From Octopus vulgaris (lineage: Eukaryota), in NCBI GenBank assembly GCA_951406725.2, contig OX597818.1, positions 77,376,001-77,440,000 of the forward strand: a DNA stretch of 64,000 bases, written 5' to 3'. Positions within the stretch are counted from its first letter, which is position 1, and the number at the start of each line of letters is the position of its first letter. Below the pieces are notes generated by a model. That model had not been told where the DNA came from, did not search any database, and saw nothing but the letters and a program-made list of their open reading frames with translations. Below are positions 10,266 to 62,195 of the stretch, in pieces. The position numbers were made by a program, and so were the translations under genes.

Positions 10266-11546
10266 ATTGGCTCTGAATATTTTTTTAAAACTAAGTGTTA
10301 TATACTTGGAAAGTGTAATGGTGGTTGCTTCTGAGGGAAGGAACCCTTTGGAAGAGGTACCAGAAGACTCTACCTCTGTGACTCTTCCAGGAACAGTGGG
10401 AAGCAAAAATGGATGGATTATACACTCTTATACATTGGGCCATAGTGCATGTACAATTAAAGTTACATTTTTACGTTATGCTTATCCTTTAATAAAGGCA
10501 GCTATATTGAACTGGCAGCCATATTGAACTGATGTCAGCACTGGACTTACTTATTGGGTTATCAATGTTTTATATGTTTCCTTTTTTGTTTTTTTTAAAT
10601 TTCTTTTTTTATTAAGTTTTCGCGGTGGTTCTGTATTCTAGAAATTTCATCTCATAGCAAAATATGATTTCCTCTATCACTCCATGGATATTCATGTTAT
10701 AGACATTTATTCTCTCTTTAAGGTTTTCCAATGCTCTATAAGAACTTCTTCAAATATGTGGAATGTTATAGATACAGTTTTTATGTATTTAGAGCATTAT
10801 TACCCTTGGTTTAGAAATGAAGGATTCTTGTTCAAATCTAATTTGGTTCTATGTGTATATTTAAAAATAAGATATCTGATGATAGTTGAAAATGAAACTA
10901 ATCGAAATGTAACCTAGATGTAAATGATAAAAAAAAAAAATCATCTCTAAAAATGAGGTTAGGAATTTGAGAAATGATCATCTTATTAACAACTCATCTC
11001 AGGCATTTAATCAACTAAACTACATACCTTCACATGAGCTTCTTCACTAAAATACCATTTTCCTGTTATTGTCACTTTCTATATATAAATGATTAAATGA
11101 TCTACTGAAAGCTTCATTTGTTTTTCTCTAAACAATTTAGTATTCATTTCTATCCACATTCGCCACCCCCTACTTAAATGCTGAAATTAAGTGTAAAAAA
11201 ATAAAATGAAATGAAATTTATTTATTTCAGAATTTCTAATTAAAGCTTAAAGGTATAAAATTTTCATGAATTAAAATTTATTTCAATCAAAATAATTTTC
11301 ATATCTTGTAATTGGTATATTTATATATATATAAATTATAATTAACTATTCATCATCAATAAAATTTAATATTGTTGAATTTTCAGCATTTGTATTAAAT
11401 CATATTAAAATTTTATTTTGTTTAGATTTTGAAATCACTTGTGTTATTCATCAATAGATATATATATATATATTTAATATTTTATTTTGTGAATTGTTAG
11501 TTTGATGACTTTATATGCCTTTCTTCATTTCTTTTCTATACAAAAG

Positions 11547-11591
11547 CAAGCGTACCAGTGTCGGCCGAAAGTCCAGTTTCAGGGGCCTAAG
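11547..11591 (+). CDS. Candidate 45-nt frame-preserving cassette exon of an unidentified host gene (QAYQCRPKVQFQGPK in phase 0, or KRTSVGRKSSFRGL in phase 2)
   Basis: Pyrimidine tract CTTTCTTCATTTCTTTTCT then AAG acceptor at 11545-46. AAG|GTAATG donor. Length is 15 codons, two frames are open, and the GC/CpG content is far above the flanks. Confidence 0.6.
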
Positions 11592-11598
11592 GTAATGC

Positions 11599-11838
11599 AA
11601 ATGCACAGCTGCCTTTATGTGCAATGGACGGTTATTGATAGCTTACATTCAGCTTCTTTGAATATCTAAGGAATGGTCTCTAGTCTTTAACATGCTGGGT
11701 TAGAGAGTTAGATTCCATCAAGCTTAAGGAAGTTATTTCCTAGGAATGTTAAGCTGAAATGCAACCCTCCATTGACTAAGCAATCGTGGTTCATATTGCA
11801 ATTTTCACTCAAAGCAACTTCGTGCAAGCTGTTCATTT
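11599..11838 (+). promoter_or_regulatory. Long intronic RNA secondary structure directly downstream of the candidate exon donor
   Basis: Nested complementary segments: 11599-610/11827-838, 11622-628/11768-774, 11630-633/11763-766, 11640-650/11744-755, 11651-661/11724-734, 11670-674/11712-716, 11677-686/11697-706. Six G-U pairs. Confidence 0.65.
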
Positions 11839-11911
11839 TAAAGTTCGAGCATGCCTTATAGTTGATTCAATAGCTTCGATCATTTTTTAACTCATATTTA
11901 TATATATATAT

Positions 11912-11944
<33 letters not shown>

Positions 11945-14900
11945 CATATTCACTTCAGTGATCTCCAGTTGATTTTCTTGCTATATTGTTGCTTCCTGAA
12001 TAGAAAATACTAACATTTTTCTGATATTGTTTTCTCTTCTTCATAGAAAAGTTATACAACACAGTTTATTGAAAATTGGTATAATCTATTTATATATTTA
12101 TTTGTCAGATAAACATTTCTTTTTTTGTATACCTCAGTTATGCAAAACATTGGCTTATACGATTTGGATGATGCTTCTGATTATAATGATTATAATGATT
12201 GTAGCCTTGTTTGTTTTGCTTCTTTTTTCTTTTTTTTTCTGTACAAAATAATGGCATTTCAGTTTTGTTGATGAAATTTGGTCTTTGAAATGAGTAAAAT
12301 AGGTCTGAAAGTTTCTGGCATTTAAAATTACAAACTGTTCAGTCAATTCACGAAGCATGAATGAAATGCTGTGTAAATATTGTTTGTACTAAAGCAGTGG
12401 CTTGTTTTATGGTCTTTCTGTTTTCTTATAAAGTAGAAAAACTCACTGAAAAAATGTGTGTGAACATAGCATGGAAGGCGGACGTTAAACAATGATGATG
12501 ATTATTTATATATATATATATATTTATTTATTTATTCACTTACACGTACATGCATACATCATTGTTATAGAGTTTAAGTCCTTTATTATCTATTGTATAA
12601 AAGTAAAGAATTTAATTGATTAGAATTGACTAAGATAGGAAAGAAAGAGCTAATGTTGCTATACGGAAGATACTTTCACTTTATTTGCAAATGGTCTTAA
12701 TCTTTATTTTTGCTATTAATTATATTTTAAAATTTTCTTTATTTTTTTCTAAAACTTCAAGTCAAAATTCATATTTCTGTATAAATGCATAAGTGATATT
12801 AATGAATAAATAAATATTACATAAGCGCCAGGTACCCTCTCTAATCGACACATTGTGGTTAGCTAATCTTGGAAACACTTATTTTCAACAATTTACTTTA
12901 TAAAATTTTTATCAGATAAAATATATAGGAATTATAAGTACAATTTTAAGGTTGCAGTTTTTTTTATTTGTATGGTTTTATTTTAATATTTTAATAAGGA
13001 ATTTTTATTTTCTCCTCAAAATTTGATTTAGTTTAAAGTCAAATGAAATAAAGGAAGCCAATCATTAATTGTATAAATTGGAGTTTGAACATTCTTGATA
13101 AGTGGTTTGTTGGTCTCATTTTATCTTTTCCACTGGGAGAAAAAAAAATTATATTTTGTCATGGTTTAATGTTTTTTAATCTCAGGTAATCTCTGCTTTT
13201 TTGATAAAATGTTTTACTAGTAATTTCATTGTTAAACCTACTTGAGTTTAATAAGTCTATCATTATAAATTCAAATTAATTAAATAGAACCAAATTAAAT
13301 CTAAGAGTGCAAGAAAAAACTCTGTTTGTGTGTTGCAAGCTTGATATATATAAATATTTTACTGAGGCTTTGACAATGTTTTCATCCTTTAAATATTCTT
13401 TGCACGTGCATATTTGTTACTAAGATAGTTTTCAAATAACAACACCTTGATGGCTCTTCGTCATTGACATGCATGATTTCGAAGACATTCTAAAGGTAGA
13501 TTTATTTTAACATTTTCATGAACTTTTCTTGCTATTGTAAAAGTTCATATTTCTCTAATAGTTCTGACTTGATTGTTTTTTTTCTTTGCTTGACAAAGCT
13601 ACCTTAAGGTTTCCGTGTTAAATCTGTACTTAATCATCATCTCTCATACTTCATTGCTTTGGTTTAGAGCAAATAGGCTTGGCAGCTGTCTAGATATAGC
13701 TAGTTATTTTAGTGGCTAATAATATTATTACACTTATTATTATTATTATCATCATCATCATTATTATTATTACTGCTACTACTACATTTGTTTGAAATTT
13801 TCATCTGATACCATCTGATATCTTTATTGTGTATTATTGTATTAAATTGTTGAAACTAATCTGTTCAAAGCATGATTATTAACCATTACATATTTTTCAA
13901 TTATATAGTTGAGTACTTAAAAAAAAAAAAGATGTAATTAATTTATAAAAGAACTTCATATTTCATAATTTATTAAAGTAAGTTTTAAATTTATCTGAAA
14001 TGTCATTCTTTGTGTTTTTAGGTTGTTTGGGATCTTTTAACATTTTTACTTATGGAGATGATGGATTTCTTAGTTTAAACACCAAGCAATACTTATAATT
14101 TGTTGTTTGTTTATTATTATTGTAACTGCAAAAGAAGAGCACTTTGTTTTAAAGAGTCTAAAATAGATTGTTTTCTCTATTGATTACAGATATTTAATCT
14201 ATTTTAGTTAGTCTTCTTAGAACTTGATATGTTTTTTTTTTTCTTTTAGGTATTTTTGAGATTTGTAACTTTTCTAAAATATAACTGCTTTTACTTATGG
14301 ACAGGAAGATACTTTTGTATATTGCAAATTTCTTTGTCAGAACATTGCTGTGAGAGAATTCAAAAGATTTTTCACTTATATATAACTGAAAGAATATTTG
14401 AATTGTGTATCTATTTATTTAACAAAGCAAATTATTAACGAAAACATATTAATATTTTGAATTAGATTAGACAAAAGAAGTTATTTTGGTATTATTGGTA
14501 CTGCAAGACATGGTGACAGTAGTGTATTTAATGTATTTATGGCTTCTTAGGAGTCAAGTCAGGACATTTGATGTAATTAGGTCATTTCTTTTTAGCTAGG
14601 TGGCACTAATAGTGGTTGGTGGTTAACTTGGCAATGTGTTCCATAATATCCAAAGTTCAGTGTTTCAAATTTCTGAGATCAAATCCACTTTAGATGAATT
14701 TACCTTTTACTCTGTCAGCATCAATGAAATAATATTTGTGATATAACAGTGTTTGATATTTTTTCTCTTTAGGAAGGTCCTTGTGCTTTTAGGGCAATGG
14801 AAAGCCATTATATAATTTGAAATATCTGAGTTTGGTACACTTATACATTATTGAGGTAAACCAGACTGGATTAGATATTTCTCTAGTTTCTATAAGCATG

Positions 14901-28069: not shown

Positions 28070-28376
28070 CTTTTACTACTGTGAGTTCCACCTGTGAGTG
28101 TATTGGGTTTTTAGGCAATTTATGCCTGAAAAATGATGGAATTTGTACATCTGTATGTTGGCTTCCTGTCATAGCATGTGTGGTAGGTAGAAAATACGAT
28201 GAAAGTGGTGGAGAGAAGAAACAAGGAGATTTTTTTTCCTTTTTATCATATCTTTTCCCTATTGCCACACTCTATAACAGGAAACCTTTATATTGGTGTG
28301 CCAGTTCTGTCATTTTTCAGTCATGACCTGCCTGGTGATCATGTGAACCCACAGTTGGAACTCAGAGTAGCAAGAG
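28070..28376. mobile_element. Fold-back / MITE-like element with long imperfect inverted arms
   Basis: CTACTGTGAGTTCCACCTGTGAGT vs ACCCACAGTTGGAACTCAGAGTAG, TATGCCTGAAAAATGA vs TCATTTTTCAGTCATG, GGCTTCCTGT vs ACAGGAAACC. Confidence 0.75.
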
Positions 28377-36499: not shown

Positions 36500-37720
36500 C
36501 TAAAGGCACAAAAATGGCAAGTTGCAGTGTTAAACCATGATAGGACTTGAACTTAGAATGCAAAGAGCTGTAACAAACACCACAAGGCATTTACTCCAAC
36601 ATTCTTATTGCATTAAGTTGTTACATCTTTTTATAGTGCCCTAAAGGATGAAAGACAAAGTTGATTTTGGTGGTATTTGAACTTAGAACACATGGAGTCA
36701 GAACAAATACCACAAAGCATTCTATCTAATACTTTAATGACTCTGCCAATTCATATGCTTGTGTATTATTATTATTGAAGCTGGCAGAATTATTAGCACA
36801 TCAGACAAAATGCTTAGTGGCATTTCTTCTGTCCTAACATTCTGAGTTCAGTTGCCACTCAGGTCAACTTTACCTTTCATCCTTTCAGGGTCAGTTAAAT
36901 AAGTACCAACTGAACACTGCGGTCAGTGTAATCAACTTGCCCCCTCCCCTCAAATTGCATGCCTTGTACCAAAATAAGAAAGATTATTTATTTATTTATT
37001 ATTATTAAGGCAGCAAGCTGGCAGAATCATTAGTAAGCCAAGTGAAATGCTTAGCAGCATTCATCCATCTTCACGTTCTGAGTTCAAATTTCACTGATTT
37101 CAACTTTGTTTTTCACCCTTTTGGGGGTTGATCAAAATAAGCACCAATGGAACTCTAGGGTCAGTGTAATTGACTTACTCCTCTCCTGAAATTGTTAGCC
37201 TTGTGCCAAAATTTGAAATCATCATCATCATCATCATTATTATTATTGATTTGACTCAGGTTTGTTCCTATTCCTGGTAGAATTTATGTGGGTAGTTGGT
37301 TACTACTTGTAACCTTAGGTATCCACAAGCTTTCAATAGTCTTTCACGTACTTAAAACTCTTCTAATAATCTTTCCTGTCCCCAAGAGGCAAACTCTCTT
37401 TAGAAGCTCCACAGGACATTCTATTCCAATCTTCTTTCAACCATTTGTCTATATCTTTAATCACCGTTTATTATTATTATTATTAAGGTGGTGAGCTAGC
37501 AGAATCGTTAGTACACTGGGTAAAACGCTTAGTGGTGTTTCATCTGCTGCTACATTCTGAGTTAAAACTCCTCTGAGGTCAACTTTGCTTTTGATCCTTT
37601 TGGAGTCGATAAATTAAGTACCAGTCAAGTACTTGGGTCGATGTAATCAACTATCTCCCTCCTCCAAATTACAGGCCTTGTGCCTATAGTAGAAAGGATT
37701 ATTATTATCATTATTTATTA
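36500..37720. mobile_element. Cluster of family B SINEs (inverted copies 36500-36750; + copies 36778-36985, 37008-37220, 37486-37700)
   Basis: Repeated GCTGGCAGAAT..TTAG..GAGTTCA..AACTTT.C.TTTCA.CCTTT units joined by (ATT)n. Confidence 0.85.
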
Positions 37721-54814: not shown

Positions 54815-55345
54815 TCAAGCTTCAAATGCTTTACATCTATTGTAGATCATTTGTTTCCAAACTGATTGATTTTGCTTCATCTGCTCCCAGTCTTCAACTT
54901 TCACATTAAGAGCCTTAAGGTTGCTTTTAACAGCACCCCTAAAATGTTTCTTAGGTTTATGTCTTGGATGTTTGCTATGCTGTAACTCCCTGTAAAACAA
55001 CTGCTTTGGCAACCTGTCATCCTGCATCCTTGCTGTGGTGCTGATATGTTATCCAGGTCTCAGAAGAGTACAGGAGGACAGTTAAAATGCAAGATTCATA
55101 GATACTAAGCTTGGTTTTGGAAGGTGATACCTCTGTCAGACCACACATGTTTTTCAAGCCTTCCAAATGCTGGCTTTTTCAATTCGCAGGTTTATTTCAG
55201 AATCAAGGGATCCATCTCTAGAGAGAGTGCTGCCAAGGTAGATGAACGAGTCAACCACATCTAATCTTGTACCCTGGACAAAGATGGTTAGGTTCCACAT
55301 AGGGTTGGCCTGGTGGCTGAGAGAACATGATCTTTGTTTTCTTTA
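54815..55345 (-). pseudogene. RTE-clade LINE fragment (RT C-terminal region), degraded
   Basis: Minus-strand peptides DVVDSFIYLGSTLSRDGSLD and MQDDRLPKQLFYRELQHSKHPRHKPKK. Confidence 0.85.
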
Positions 55346-55378
55346 TACACATGCACACACACATTATATATATATATA

Positions 55379-55796
55379 CAGGGGTTCAACAAAATAATGG
55401 AAACACCTAGCATCATAGCATTATAATTTTGAAATATCTATAAAACCATCAAAAGTTTGTTTATTTTTATTGTTACTGAATGGCACGAGGTACATTCTAG
55501 TGAAGTTGAACAACTTATCTGGCCACCACAGTCCCCAGATCTCAACATTATGGAACATTTATGGTGTATTTTAGAAAAACAAGTAAGGAGTCAATATCCT
55601 TCACCATCATCACTACAAGAACTGGAGACTATTTTAGCTGAAGAATGGACAAAAATTCCTTTGGAAACAATTCAAACTTTGTACAAGTCCATACCTCGTA
55701 GAATTCAAGCTATAATTATTTTCAAAAGTGGTCTTATCCCATATTAAAATAAATTTGTTTGAAATTTTTAGGTGTTTCCATTATTTTGCCCAACCC
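55379..55796 (+). mobile_element. Internally deleted Tc1-like transposon retaining the transposase C-terminus
   Basis: TIRs CAGGGGTTCAACAAAATAATGGAAACACCTA / TAGGTGTTTCCATTATTTTGCCCAACCC in (TA)n. WPPQSPDLNIMEHLW DDE motif in ORF 55457-55747. Confidence 0.9.
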
Positions 55797-56534
55797 ATAT
55801 ATATATATATATATAAATGGGCGTATATATTTTTATCTGAAGTTGATTTACTGGACTAATATGAAATCTTGCAAAGAAATTTACAGCTGAATATTGATCT
55901 AAAATATTGGAAGTCTTATACTAATTACATTATGAAAGTGTCATAAAACTGTGAGGAATATAGAACACCGGTACTGTATTTGATGACATAAAAAATGCAC
56001 CTCAATTTGAGCAGTGCATATTTGGCAAAAGAATTTTCAGTGTATTGAAGCTTATGGGAGGTCAACTTCACATATAAGGGTGATTCTTTTTGGAGACAAG
56101 TTTTGGAGAAAAAAAGTGCATATTATATGCCATGATATACAGCAGGTTTCACTTTAGTATTCAACTGTCGGTAAGCCTGACTTCTTGTGGTTATGTGAGA
56201 AACCTATAAAATGACATTCCTAGTTTAATATGAAATATTACTTGATTGAAATTTTAATGACAACTACTTCTGATTAGTTTGTAAAGAGAAACTTAATTCA
56301 TATAAAACATAAATGAACTGCTCTATCAGTTCATTTGGGTGGTGAATGTGTTTTTTAAATATTAAAAATTTTTAAAAAATTTTTGTCTTGACATTCAGGT
56401 ATTTTTTTAAATAGAATTTTAAATAATTATTTTAATTCACTTTTCTTTTGTGAAAATGGTCTGTTTGTCCTTGATGTAGAAGTATTAGTAGACTTGGTTA
56501 CCAAAGAGTTTGAATTAGTATTCCACCTCCTTGT

Positions 56535-57059
56535 TTCAAATGCTTTACATCTATTGTAGATCATTTGTTTCCAAACTGATTGATTTTGCTTCATCTGCTC
56601 CCAGTCTTCAACTTTCACATTAAGAGCCTTAAGGTTGCTTTTAACAGCACCCCTAAAATGTTTCTTAGGTTTATGTCTTGGATGTTTGCTATGCTGTAAC
56701 TCCCTGTAAAACAACTGCTTTGGCAACCTGTCATCCTGCATCCTTGCTGTGGTGCTGATATGTTATCCAGGTCTCAGAAGAGTACAGGAGGACAGTTAAA
56801 ATGCAAGATTCATAGATACTAAGCTTGGTTTTGGAAGGTGATACCTCTGTCAGACCACACATGTTTTTCAAGCCTTCCAAATGCTGGCTTTTTCAATTCG
56901 CAGGTTTATTTCAGAATCAAGGGATCCATCTCTAGAGAGAGTGCTGCCAAGGTAGATGAACGAGTCAACCACATCTAATCTTGTACCCTGGACAAAGATG
57001 GTTAGGTTCCACATAGGGTTGGCCTGGTGGCTGAGAGAACATGATCTTTGTTTTCTTTA
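56535..57059 (-). pseudogene. Duplicated copy of the RTE LINE fragment
   Basis: Matches 54821-55345. Confidence 0.85.
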
Positions 57060-57510: not shown

Positions 57511-57904
57511 ATATATATATATCCGAAAGGCTTTTGTCCATTTTATATGTACATGTATAATTCTATTTTTTATGTTACATTTGTCCAATAGTTGAAAGAC
57601 TCTTTCTGCTTGTTATTTCCTTGTGTTTGTATATTGTTTGTATATGTACATTTGTTTGCCTTGCTCAGGGGCTTAATGCCCTCAGCTTAAGCCCCTGGCC
57701 CAACTGATTTTGAGTAGTATCAGAGAGGATTGGGCAAAACTACGTAGACACTCCAGACTCCGACTGAAGAAGCAATTGTGTGTGAATGATCCATGTTTCT
57801 TGTTTTGTCCTGTTTGCCGTTGTTGTGTTATCATCCTTTTCCTGCTTGTTATGTTTTGACCATTTCCGTTTGTTGTTTTTGATTTACATATATATATATA
57901 TATA

Positions 57905-58936
57905 TTCCGGGTAGAAGTAGGTGTGCACCAGGGCTCAGCCCTCAGTCCCCTTTTATTCATCATAGTCCTTCAGGCAATAACAGAGGAATTCAAAACGGGA
58001 TGCCCCTGGGAGCTCCTCTATGCCGATGACCTAACTCTCATAGCAGAATCACTACCGGAACTAGAAGAGAAATTTCGGGTGTGGAAGCAAGGGTTGGAAT
58101 CAAAGGGCCTTAGAATAAATGTAGCAAAGACCAAAGTATTAGTAAGCAGCAAGAGGTACTCAGCACACACCCCCTCGGGTAGGTGGCCCTGCTCAATCTG
58201 TAGGAAAGGTACAGGTAGAAACTCCATAAGATGCACCCAATGTAAGTTATGGACACATAAGAGGTGCAGCAACATTAAAGGGAAATTAACAGATAAGATA
58301 GCTTTCATGTGCGGCAGATGCACAGGGACAATAGACACAACAGACACTCAGAAAACAGATTCCATCACACTCCAGGGAGAGAAACTAGAAGTAGTTGATA
58401 GTTTCCGCTACCTGGGTGACCAAGTTAGTAGCGGAGGTGGATGCACAGAGAGTATCACCACTAGAATACGAATAGCCTGGGCAAAGTTCAGAAAGCTCCT
58501 ACCCCTACTGGCAACAAAAGGTCTCTCCCTCAGAGCGAAAGGTAGATTGTATGATGCATGTGTGCGAACTGCCATGCTTCACGGTAATGAAACATGGGCA
58601 GTGACTGCAGAGGACATGCGTAGACTTGAAAGAAATGAAGCTAGCATGATCCGCTGGATGTGTAGTGTCAGTGTGCACGCAAGACAGAGTGTAAGCATCC
58701 TAAGAGAAATGCTGGATATAAGAAGCATCAGATGTGGTGTGCAAGAGCGACGCTTGCGATGGTATGGTCATGTGCTGCGGATGGATGAAGAGAGATGTGT
58801 GAAGAAGTGCCACTCCCAAACAGTTGAAGGTATCAGGGGGAGAGGTAGACCCAGGAAGACATGGGATGAGGTAGTCAAGCATGACCTCAGAGCATTGGGC
58901 CTCACTGAGGCAATGGCGAAAGACCGAGATCTCTGA
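57905..58936 (+). pseudogene. Reverse transcriptase C-terminal half (QGSALSP, YADD) with embedded PHD-type finger
   Basis: Uninterrupted frame with GVHQGSALSPLLF, LLYADD, INVAKTK, FRYLG, RRLRWYGHVLRM and GRGRPRKTW. The TGA at 58934 is probably a mutated TGG (DRDL*RYAV). Confidence 0.93.
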
Positions 58937-61946: not shown

Positions 61947-62195
61947 TTGGATTGGTGCATAATTATTGTGGCTTTTTTTCCAACAAATTTTATTCAACAA
62001 TAACTATAACATGTAACAAAAATATCTTTAAATGATTATTCTGGAGCATATTCACCATCAACTTCAATTACTGCTTCCCATTTGTTTGGCAGACGGCCAG
62101 ACCATCATTTAAAGATGTTTTTGTTAAATATTGTTATTGTTTTTGTTGAATAAAATTCGTTGAAAAAAAGCTGCAATAATTATGCACCAACCCAA
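61947..62195 (-). mobile_element. Mariner-derived MITE with long TIRs and a transposase C-terminal remnant
   Basis: TTGGATTGGTGCATAATTATTG..ATTTTATTCAACAA / TTGTTGAATAAAAT..CAATAATTATGCACCAACCCAA-TA. The minus strand encodes RLPNKWEAVIEVDGEYAPE*. Confidence 0.85.

Follow-up and report, generated by a model that had tools for sequence, protein, structure and literature searches.

Folds in pre-mRNA that mask a splice site are established in human genes. In SMN2 intron 7, the ISTL1 strand is base-paired to the 5' splice site, and the 279 nt looped out between them carry modules of their own (PMC3783185). In GAK exon 7, an RNA kinetic switch sequesters the 5' splice site in a duplex and favours skipping, and the timing of the downstream arm matters (PMC12519161). 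Rbfox bridges at exon 11a of ENAH and exon 5b of SCN9A rely on pairing that brings a distal GCAUG near the regulated exon (bioRxiv 10.1101/2025.08.16.670673, citing Lovci 2013), and in the GluA2 R/G hairpin an exon-intron duplex covers the donor, with an Arg-codon A at donor position -2 (PMC3553983). Splicing of ARHGEF12 is regulated by NOVA2 (PMC10178952), the regulated exon being mouse exon 4 (PMC12221596), which is taken to be different from the 45-nt octopus exon described below. The literature covered, mostly outside subscription journals and in part as excerpts, holds no splice-site-masking fold for this exon or for cephalopods and no description of the octopus ARHGEF11/12 cassette exon or its fold, and the portion of PMC9068888 that was covered has nothing on the RhoGEF locus.

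The locus described here belongs to Octopus vulgaris (assembly GCA_951406725.2) and lies in a stretch of 64,000 nt, positions 77,376,001 to 77,440,000 of the forward strand of contig OX597818.1, hereafter the window. We propose with moderate confidence, on the basis of modelled folding, that a cis-acting pre-mRNA structure at ~11588-11858 controls a 45-nt ARHGEF11/12 exon by donor masking of the SMN2 ISTL1 kind. As in ISTL1-ISTL3 of SMN2, the 5' splice site of a skipped exon has a predicted pairing partner in a downstream intronic strand, further stems adjoin, and independently folding modules are looped out (279 nt in SMN2, ~250 nt in octopus; PMC3783185). The downstream strand is complementary to the 5' splice site, with a predicted pairing probability of 0.37-0.95 depending on context. 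Unlike ISTL1, which has been probed and mutated, the octopus fold is a prediction and its helix also takes in four exonic bases; the likeness is drawn without a claim of homology. The GAK switch resembles the octopus fold in the sequestering duplex and the skipping that it favours, and its timing effect may have a counterpart in octopus (PMC12519161). As in the Rbfox bridges, predicted pairing brings a GCAUG (11849-11853) near the exon, this being a common motif; unlike in the bridges, the octopus GCAUG sits inside the donor-masking strand and is preceded by A instead of U. With GluA2 R/G the locus shares an A at donor position -2 that is the first base of an Arg codon and lies inside a predicted exon-intron duplex. 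Unlike in GluA2, where editing is documented, the octopus pairing is long-range and broken by a 10-nt bulge, and the likeness is one of geometry (PMC3553983).

The gene that hosts the fold encodes a PDZ-domain RhoGEF. Its + strand exons were found in the stretches flanking the window, and its best protein matches are ARHGEF11/12 of Octopus vulgaris and O. sinensis. The start-codon exon is ~36.9 kb upstream of the window, the next constant exon begins at window-relative 71972, and PDZ exons are at window-relative 87966, 119665 and ~132818. The fold therefore lies in the sense strand of a ~60-kb intron, and its strand is assigned by the host gene, not by the fold itself. Near window-relative 87966 (77463966), a single Ala ahead of the PDZ domain is present in some octopus models and absent from others (DSDSAG vs DSDSG), so this exon may have tandem acceptors separated by 3 nt. 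Exons on the - strand at approximately 77291600-77300800 (L003-L004) are presumably those of an SLC37-type sugar-phosphate transporter, arranged head to head with the RhoGEF.

The candidate exon donor that the initial annotation had placed beside the fold is real: gene models include the 45-nt exon. This adjoining exon is alternatively spliced, as models exist with and without its 15 residues. The exon and the intron before it are as follows.

11347..11546, + strand: conserved intron upstream of the exon, with a pyrimidine tract at ~11519-11543 and an AAG acceptor at 11544-11546
11547..11591, + strand: 45-nt cassette exon 2 of ARHGEF11/12 (PDZ-RhoGEF/LARG-like), from gene models with the flanking exons mapped

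The exon adds SKRTSVGRKSSFRGL between 'MSLPE' and 'RLGSL'. It is in phase 2 at both ends, with an Arg codon split across the donor; in phase 1 it would meet a stop at 11588-11590, but the gene models use phase 2, and a reading of it as a poison exon was therefore rejected. Judged from its sequence, the insert appears basic and serine-rich and would lie ahead of the PDZ domain, and it carries motifs that may resemble PKA-type sites. Inclusion and skipping are known here from gene models or contig translations, not from read counts. The insert is included in P0126, P0127, P0134 (O. sinensis) and P0129 (O. bimaculoides), and it is skipped in P0123 and P0131, in P0001 and P0002 (O. vulgaris), in P0135 (Argonauta) and in three further proteins (P0003, P0009, P0139). 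Among the 15 cluster members listed (of 22), six start with the same first exon, four of them including the insert and two skipping it.

Basic inserts at what is apparently the same pre-PDZ junction were also seen elsewhere: 33 residues long in ticks and 7 residues long in fish, with a further one in a bivalve. This comparison was made at the protein level (P0080/P0083, P0104/P0107 and P0174/P0208 vs P0131/P0126), the members of a pair coming from different species. The tick, fish, bivalve and octopus inserts look unrelated in sequence, and it may be that ARHGEF11/12 genes have acquired alternative exons at this junction more than once.

All eight arm pairs of the initial annotation and its side hairpin are present in the sequence at the positions it gave, with 6 G-U pairs and one C-U mismatch. 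The structure built from them has a folding energy of -56.9 kcal/mol, compared with -65.8 kcal/mol for the minimum free energy (MFE) structure. Of the nested helices that it described, the five outer ones stand (pair probability 0.91-0.99, side hairpin included), whereas the three inner ones are probably wrong. The inner helices 11651:11734, 11670:11716 and 11677:11706 have mean pair probabilities of 0.20, 0.02 and 0.01, variants at 11732 break one of them, and they were rejected. In the modelled ensemble a four-way junction is preferred over unbranched nesting, the unbranched form having a probability of <=0.2 with the reference sequence and ~0 with the alleles of two other sources, organisms E and F. 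The start of the fold also had to be moved. It had been set at 11599, 7 nt after the donor; the donor was right, but the predicted start is 11588, with an extra helix that covers the donor. The parts of the predicted structure are these.

11588..11598, + strand: 5' splice site (exon end 11591); also the 5' arm of the helix predicted to mask the donor
11599..11612, + strand: 5' arm of helix H1, pairing with 11824-11838 (pair probability 0.95)
11622..11650, + strand: 5' strand of the central ladder H2-H5, which has ~28 bp interrupted by small internal loops (probability 0.98-0.99)
11655..11672, + strand: predicted hairpin A of the junction, its loop containing the variable site 11663 (probability 0.60)
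11673..11718, + strand: predicted hairpin B of the junction, in a register unlike that first described (probability 0.90-0.99)
11727..11741, + strand: predicted hairpin C, its loop end containing the variable sites 11732 and 11735 (probability 0.75 with the reference, 0.96-0.97 with E or F alleles)
11744..11774, + strand: 3' strand of the central ladder H2-H5, from folding prediction
11780..11799, + strand: side hairpin, as first described (pair probability 0.91)
11824..11838, + strand: 3' arm of H1, from folding prediction
11849..11858, + strand: 3' arm of the predicted donor-masking helix, unchanged in organism E

The basal helix, 11588-11598:11849-11858, is predicted to extend H1 across a 10-nt bulge and to cover the donor from -4 to +7, that is, the last four bases of the exon and the first seven of the intron. 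The split Arg codon begins with A11590, which occupies donor position -2. Over nine scored pairs in a 332-nt fold the mean pair probability of the helix is 0.95, a value that is unchanged with the E and F alleles. For its main stretch the probability is 0.87 when 332 nt are folded, 0.66 with 401 nt and 0.37 with 601 nt, the drop to 0.37 arising because the exon's own 5' part competes. This part, 11550-11556, is a second predicted partner of the donor (0.47 in the 601-nt fold), and the donor stays paired; in these models the donor may thus be masked in two alternative ways. The duplex between the donor and 11849-11858 has an energy of -10.1 kcal/mol. Sites that bind the donor at <=-10.1 kcal/mol number 7 in the 60,350 nt of intron 2, with 11849-11858 included, and 5 comparably good sites occur in 48,350 nt of intron 1. 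In favour of a splicing switch, the masking strand sits 10 nt past the end of H1. It also contains an Rbfox-type core, the only GCAUG in 11400-11900, with A as the preceding base. Complementarity to the donor already accounts for four of its five bases, and GCATG is common, with 59 occurrences in intron 2, which weighs against the motif, so that the GCAUG of the masking strand is a lead only.

Measured against chance, the fold is moderately better than expected, and its modelled stability is moderate. The initial annotation had called the fold strand-specific, which is not borne out, as the - strand (shuffle z = -3.14, 1 of 200 shuffles as good) folds as well as the + strand (z = -2.56, 2 of 200). 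It had also taken the G-U pairs as a sign of selection on RNA. The data refute this: the + strand MFE structure has 7 G-U pairs, whereas shuffles average 10.0 and 139 of 150 of them have at least 7, and its mirror-strand penalty is smaller than in 147 of 150. What stands out is the number of long-range contacts. The stretch 11588-11858 has 35 confident pairs spanning >100 nt, compared with a shuffle mean of 5.8 and with no shuffle out of 150 reaching 35; among real intron sequence, 2 of 255 windows reach it, the 255 being the GC-matched, non-simple windows out of 799 examined.

Other comparisons speak against a splicing switch, and they bear on a reading that we consider rather unlikely, in which the region is conserved in the way usual for sequence beside an alternative exon, because of protein-binding motifs in its primary sequence, and the fold is a by-product. 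That both strands fold alike fits such a flank. The MFE is matched or beaten by 11 of the 255 GC-matched windows. After adjustment for composition it is beaten by 70 of the 1522 intron windows left when 288 simple-repeat windows are taken out of 1810 folded. These ranks are in the top 4-5%, even with boundaries chosen in the element's favour. When the stretch is extended to 11575-11870, z is only -1.36 and 20 of 200 shuffles are as good. Many long-range pairs were also predicted downstream of five other donors of the gene (27, 6, 32, 33 and 21, vs 39 here, three of the five control donors being set one base off), and the exon-1 donor is predicted to be equally paired (unpaired probability 0.14, vs 0.13 for the cassette exon donor). 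On the other side, the region ranks within the top 1% of matched windows for long-range pairs, and a donor-complementary site as good as this one occurs about once per 9 kb, yet one is found in register with the ladder. Simple motifs are few for a flank kept for protein binding (1 GCATG, 0 ACTAAY and 4 YGCY, counts taken without a null). The case for a splicing switch rests more on position and conservation than on thermodynamics alone.

The element, or part of it, is present in 20 of 24 sequencing runs under six organism labels. Sequences for comparison came from four runs, including X12 (DNA of organism E), contigs of X15 and X20, and raw RNA of X24. Organism E DNA has 2 substitutions and no gap over 11486-11888 (2/403), compared with 12 substitutions and 3 indels over the control 10951-11305 (12/355); the substitution counts differ at p=0.005 (Fisher), in a test with one comparator organism and one AT-rich control stretch. 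Conservation is not confined to the fold. In the upstream intron of organism E there are 0 substitutions and 1 gap over 11347-11443, and 11486-11546 is without listed differences, the comparison skipping a repeat at 11444-11485. The upstream flank, for which no fold is proposed, is thus equally conserved, which counts against a splicing switch; that flank and exon are as conserved as the fold is what an ordinary conserved flank would give.

The distribution of the variants points the other way. The organism F contig from X20 (11612-11804, depth 4.3) differs at 5 positions and has 1 gap; the gap and 3 of the differences are listed, and the other two could fall in helices. The listed variable sites, 11663, 11732 and 11735, are in or at the edge of predicted hairpin loops and none is in the ladder, whose 5' strand (11622-11650) shows no listed difference in organisms E or F; this avoidance of the ladder is not what a by-product fold would lead one to expect. 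Site 11663 has a substitution and a 1-nt insertion in organism F. Site 11732 is A in E and T in F, and either base breaks a C-G pair of the sixth helix of the initial annotation. With the E or F alleles the probability of that helix falls to ~0 and that of hairpin C rises to 0.96-0.97, the ladder and the donor helix being unchanged. No compensatory changes were seen in organism E DNA, where the arms are unchanged, or among the listed differences of the organism F contig, and the lack of covariation in this comparison agrees with a conserved flank. Protein and pattern searches gave no distant homolog. A protein search with the exon-including N-terminus gave 3 matches among 6 candidates, all from octopus, which is weak evidence of absence elsewhere, and when metagenomes were scanned with a pattern meant to find a squid homolog, the 2 matches look bacterial and agree in the pattern alone.

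The initial annotation had found the sequence once in the window and without TIR or TSD, and that it is not a MITE holds as far as tested: two DNA searches of the 2.8-Gb genome gave one match at E<=10 (such counts being lower bounds), and the arms are short. Dispersed copies and the long terminal inverted repeats of a MITE were absent from the genome search, within the same lower bounds. A decayed inverted-repeat transposon remnant, possibly co-opted, is accordingly a very improbable origin. Relative to shuffles, the fold has a larger share of Watson-Crick pairs and greater strand symmetry, as such a relic would, and MITE-like inverted repeats occur elsewhere in the same intron. Yet besides the single genome match, an 18-nt pattern allowing 1 mismatch has 3 matches, the same as a control pattern; the longest ungapped inverted arm is 12 nt, vs 30-68 nt in nearby MITE-like folds; and the element is strongly conserved. 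The MITE-like folds are long imperfect inverted repeats at 36643-36885, 61947-62195 and 28070-28376, which fold more strongly than the element. Two identical 300-nt copies, 54821-55120 and 56535-56834, lie 1714 nt apart within a local duplication and represent a recent duplication or an assembly artefact. The duplication around 54821-56834 includes what we take to be a Tc1/mariner-like frame, and a 358-codon open frame at 57860-58933 (+) is presumably a LINE reverse-transcriptase fragment.

We regard it as similarly far-fetched that the fold is an independent intronic non-coding RNA released from the RhoGEF intron, such as a stable intron RNA, a snoRNA-like RNA or a microRNA precursor. The longest contigs of two guessed-RNA runs lie on the fold alone (X15, 11631-11878; X20, 11612-11804), which would fit an RNA of this kind; however, they have a depth of 3-4, were picked for holding the element, may be DNA and cannot show RNA ends. 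Rfam 15 gave 0 matches at gathering score within the window, and the 5 weak matches at E<=10 in 11400-12000 are all at 11895 or beyond, none in the element. The sequence thus belongs to no family recognised by the Rfam scan, as had been supposed, and an independent structured RNA finds no support there. A tRNA scan found none. The dominant fold is the branched four-way junction, without the long unbranched hairpin of a microRNA precursor.

Recoding is abundant in coleoid neural tissue (PMC8382921), and the geometry at the donor recalls GluA2 R/G, with its edited A at donor -2 and its intronic complementary sequence (PMC3553983). On these grounds 11849-11858 could be the editing-complementary sequence of an ADAR substrate of the R/G type, with A11590 as its target; editing there would make the donor weaker and turn the Arg codon, whose bases lie on both sides of the intron, into one for Gly. 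In the predicted helix A11590 is base-paired. We nevertheless think this improbable. There are only 2 pairs 5' of A11590, a 10-nt bulge follows the 10-bp helix, and chance alone often gives exons that end in AG and have a split Arg codon. A helix of 10 bp is short for ADAR. The X15 contig (11631-11878) differs only where DNA of the same organism differs: it has no A>G besides that at 11735, which appears in guessed-RNA contigs and also in organism E DNA and is thus genomic in E, although contigs hide minority edits. Three RNA or guessed-RNA runs have no read or contig over the exon (11547-11591). Raw RNA of X24 (~6%, 12.9 million records) gave 0 reads on 11014-11895, which has no bearing on inclusion, and 20 reads at 10972-11013 that are partial matches. 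No ARHGEF11/12 editing sites are listed in one small supplement each of PMC8382921, PMC9068888 and PMC4384741, large tables excluded.

The splicing switch, as proposed in the initial annotation, gains support from the cassette exon, the conserved block and the predicted donor-pairing helix. In the model that we prefer, the nested ladder ending in a four-way junction would place 11849-11858 beside the donor; the predicted pairing there takes in the last 4 bases of the exon and the first 7 of the intron. This basal pairing would block U1 and make skipping the default, and inclusion would require the helix to be opened or outcompeted. The likeliest opener would be an Rbfox-type single-strand RNA-binding protein acting on the GCAUG in the masking strand; alternatively, U1 could bind before the far arm is transcribed ~260 nt later. 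The outcome of inclusion would be the 15-residue basic, serine-rich insert ahead of the PDZ domain. A more speculative version, which we think doubtful, is that the octopus RhoGEF independently evolved an R/G-like device, in which the fold masks the donor and offers the -2 A to ADAR and the masking strand is of Rbfox type. If so, a single 10-bp helix would link exon choice to both editing and protein binding.

If the fold is incidental, what remains is a conserved cassette exon that is absent from the O. vulgaris models examined. If the donor is masked as proposed, the locus would provide a small model, open to testing, of how RNA structure controls exon choice in an animal that edits its RNA very heavily, and A11590 would be a defined place to ask about the coupling of editing and splicing.
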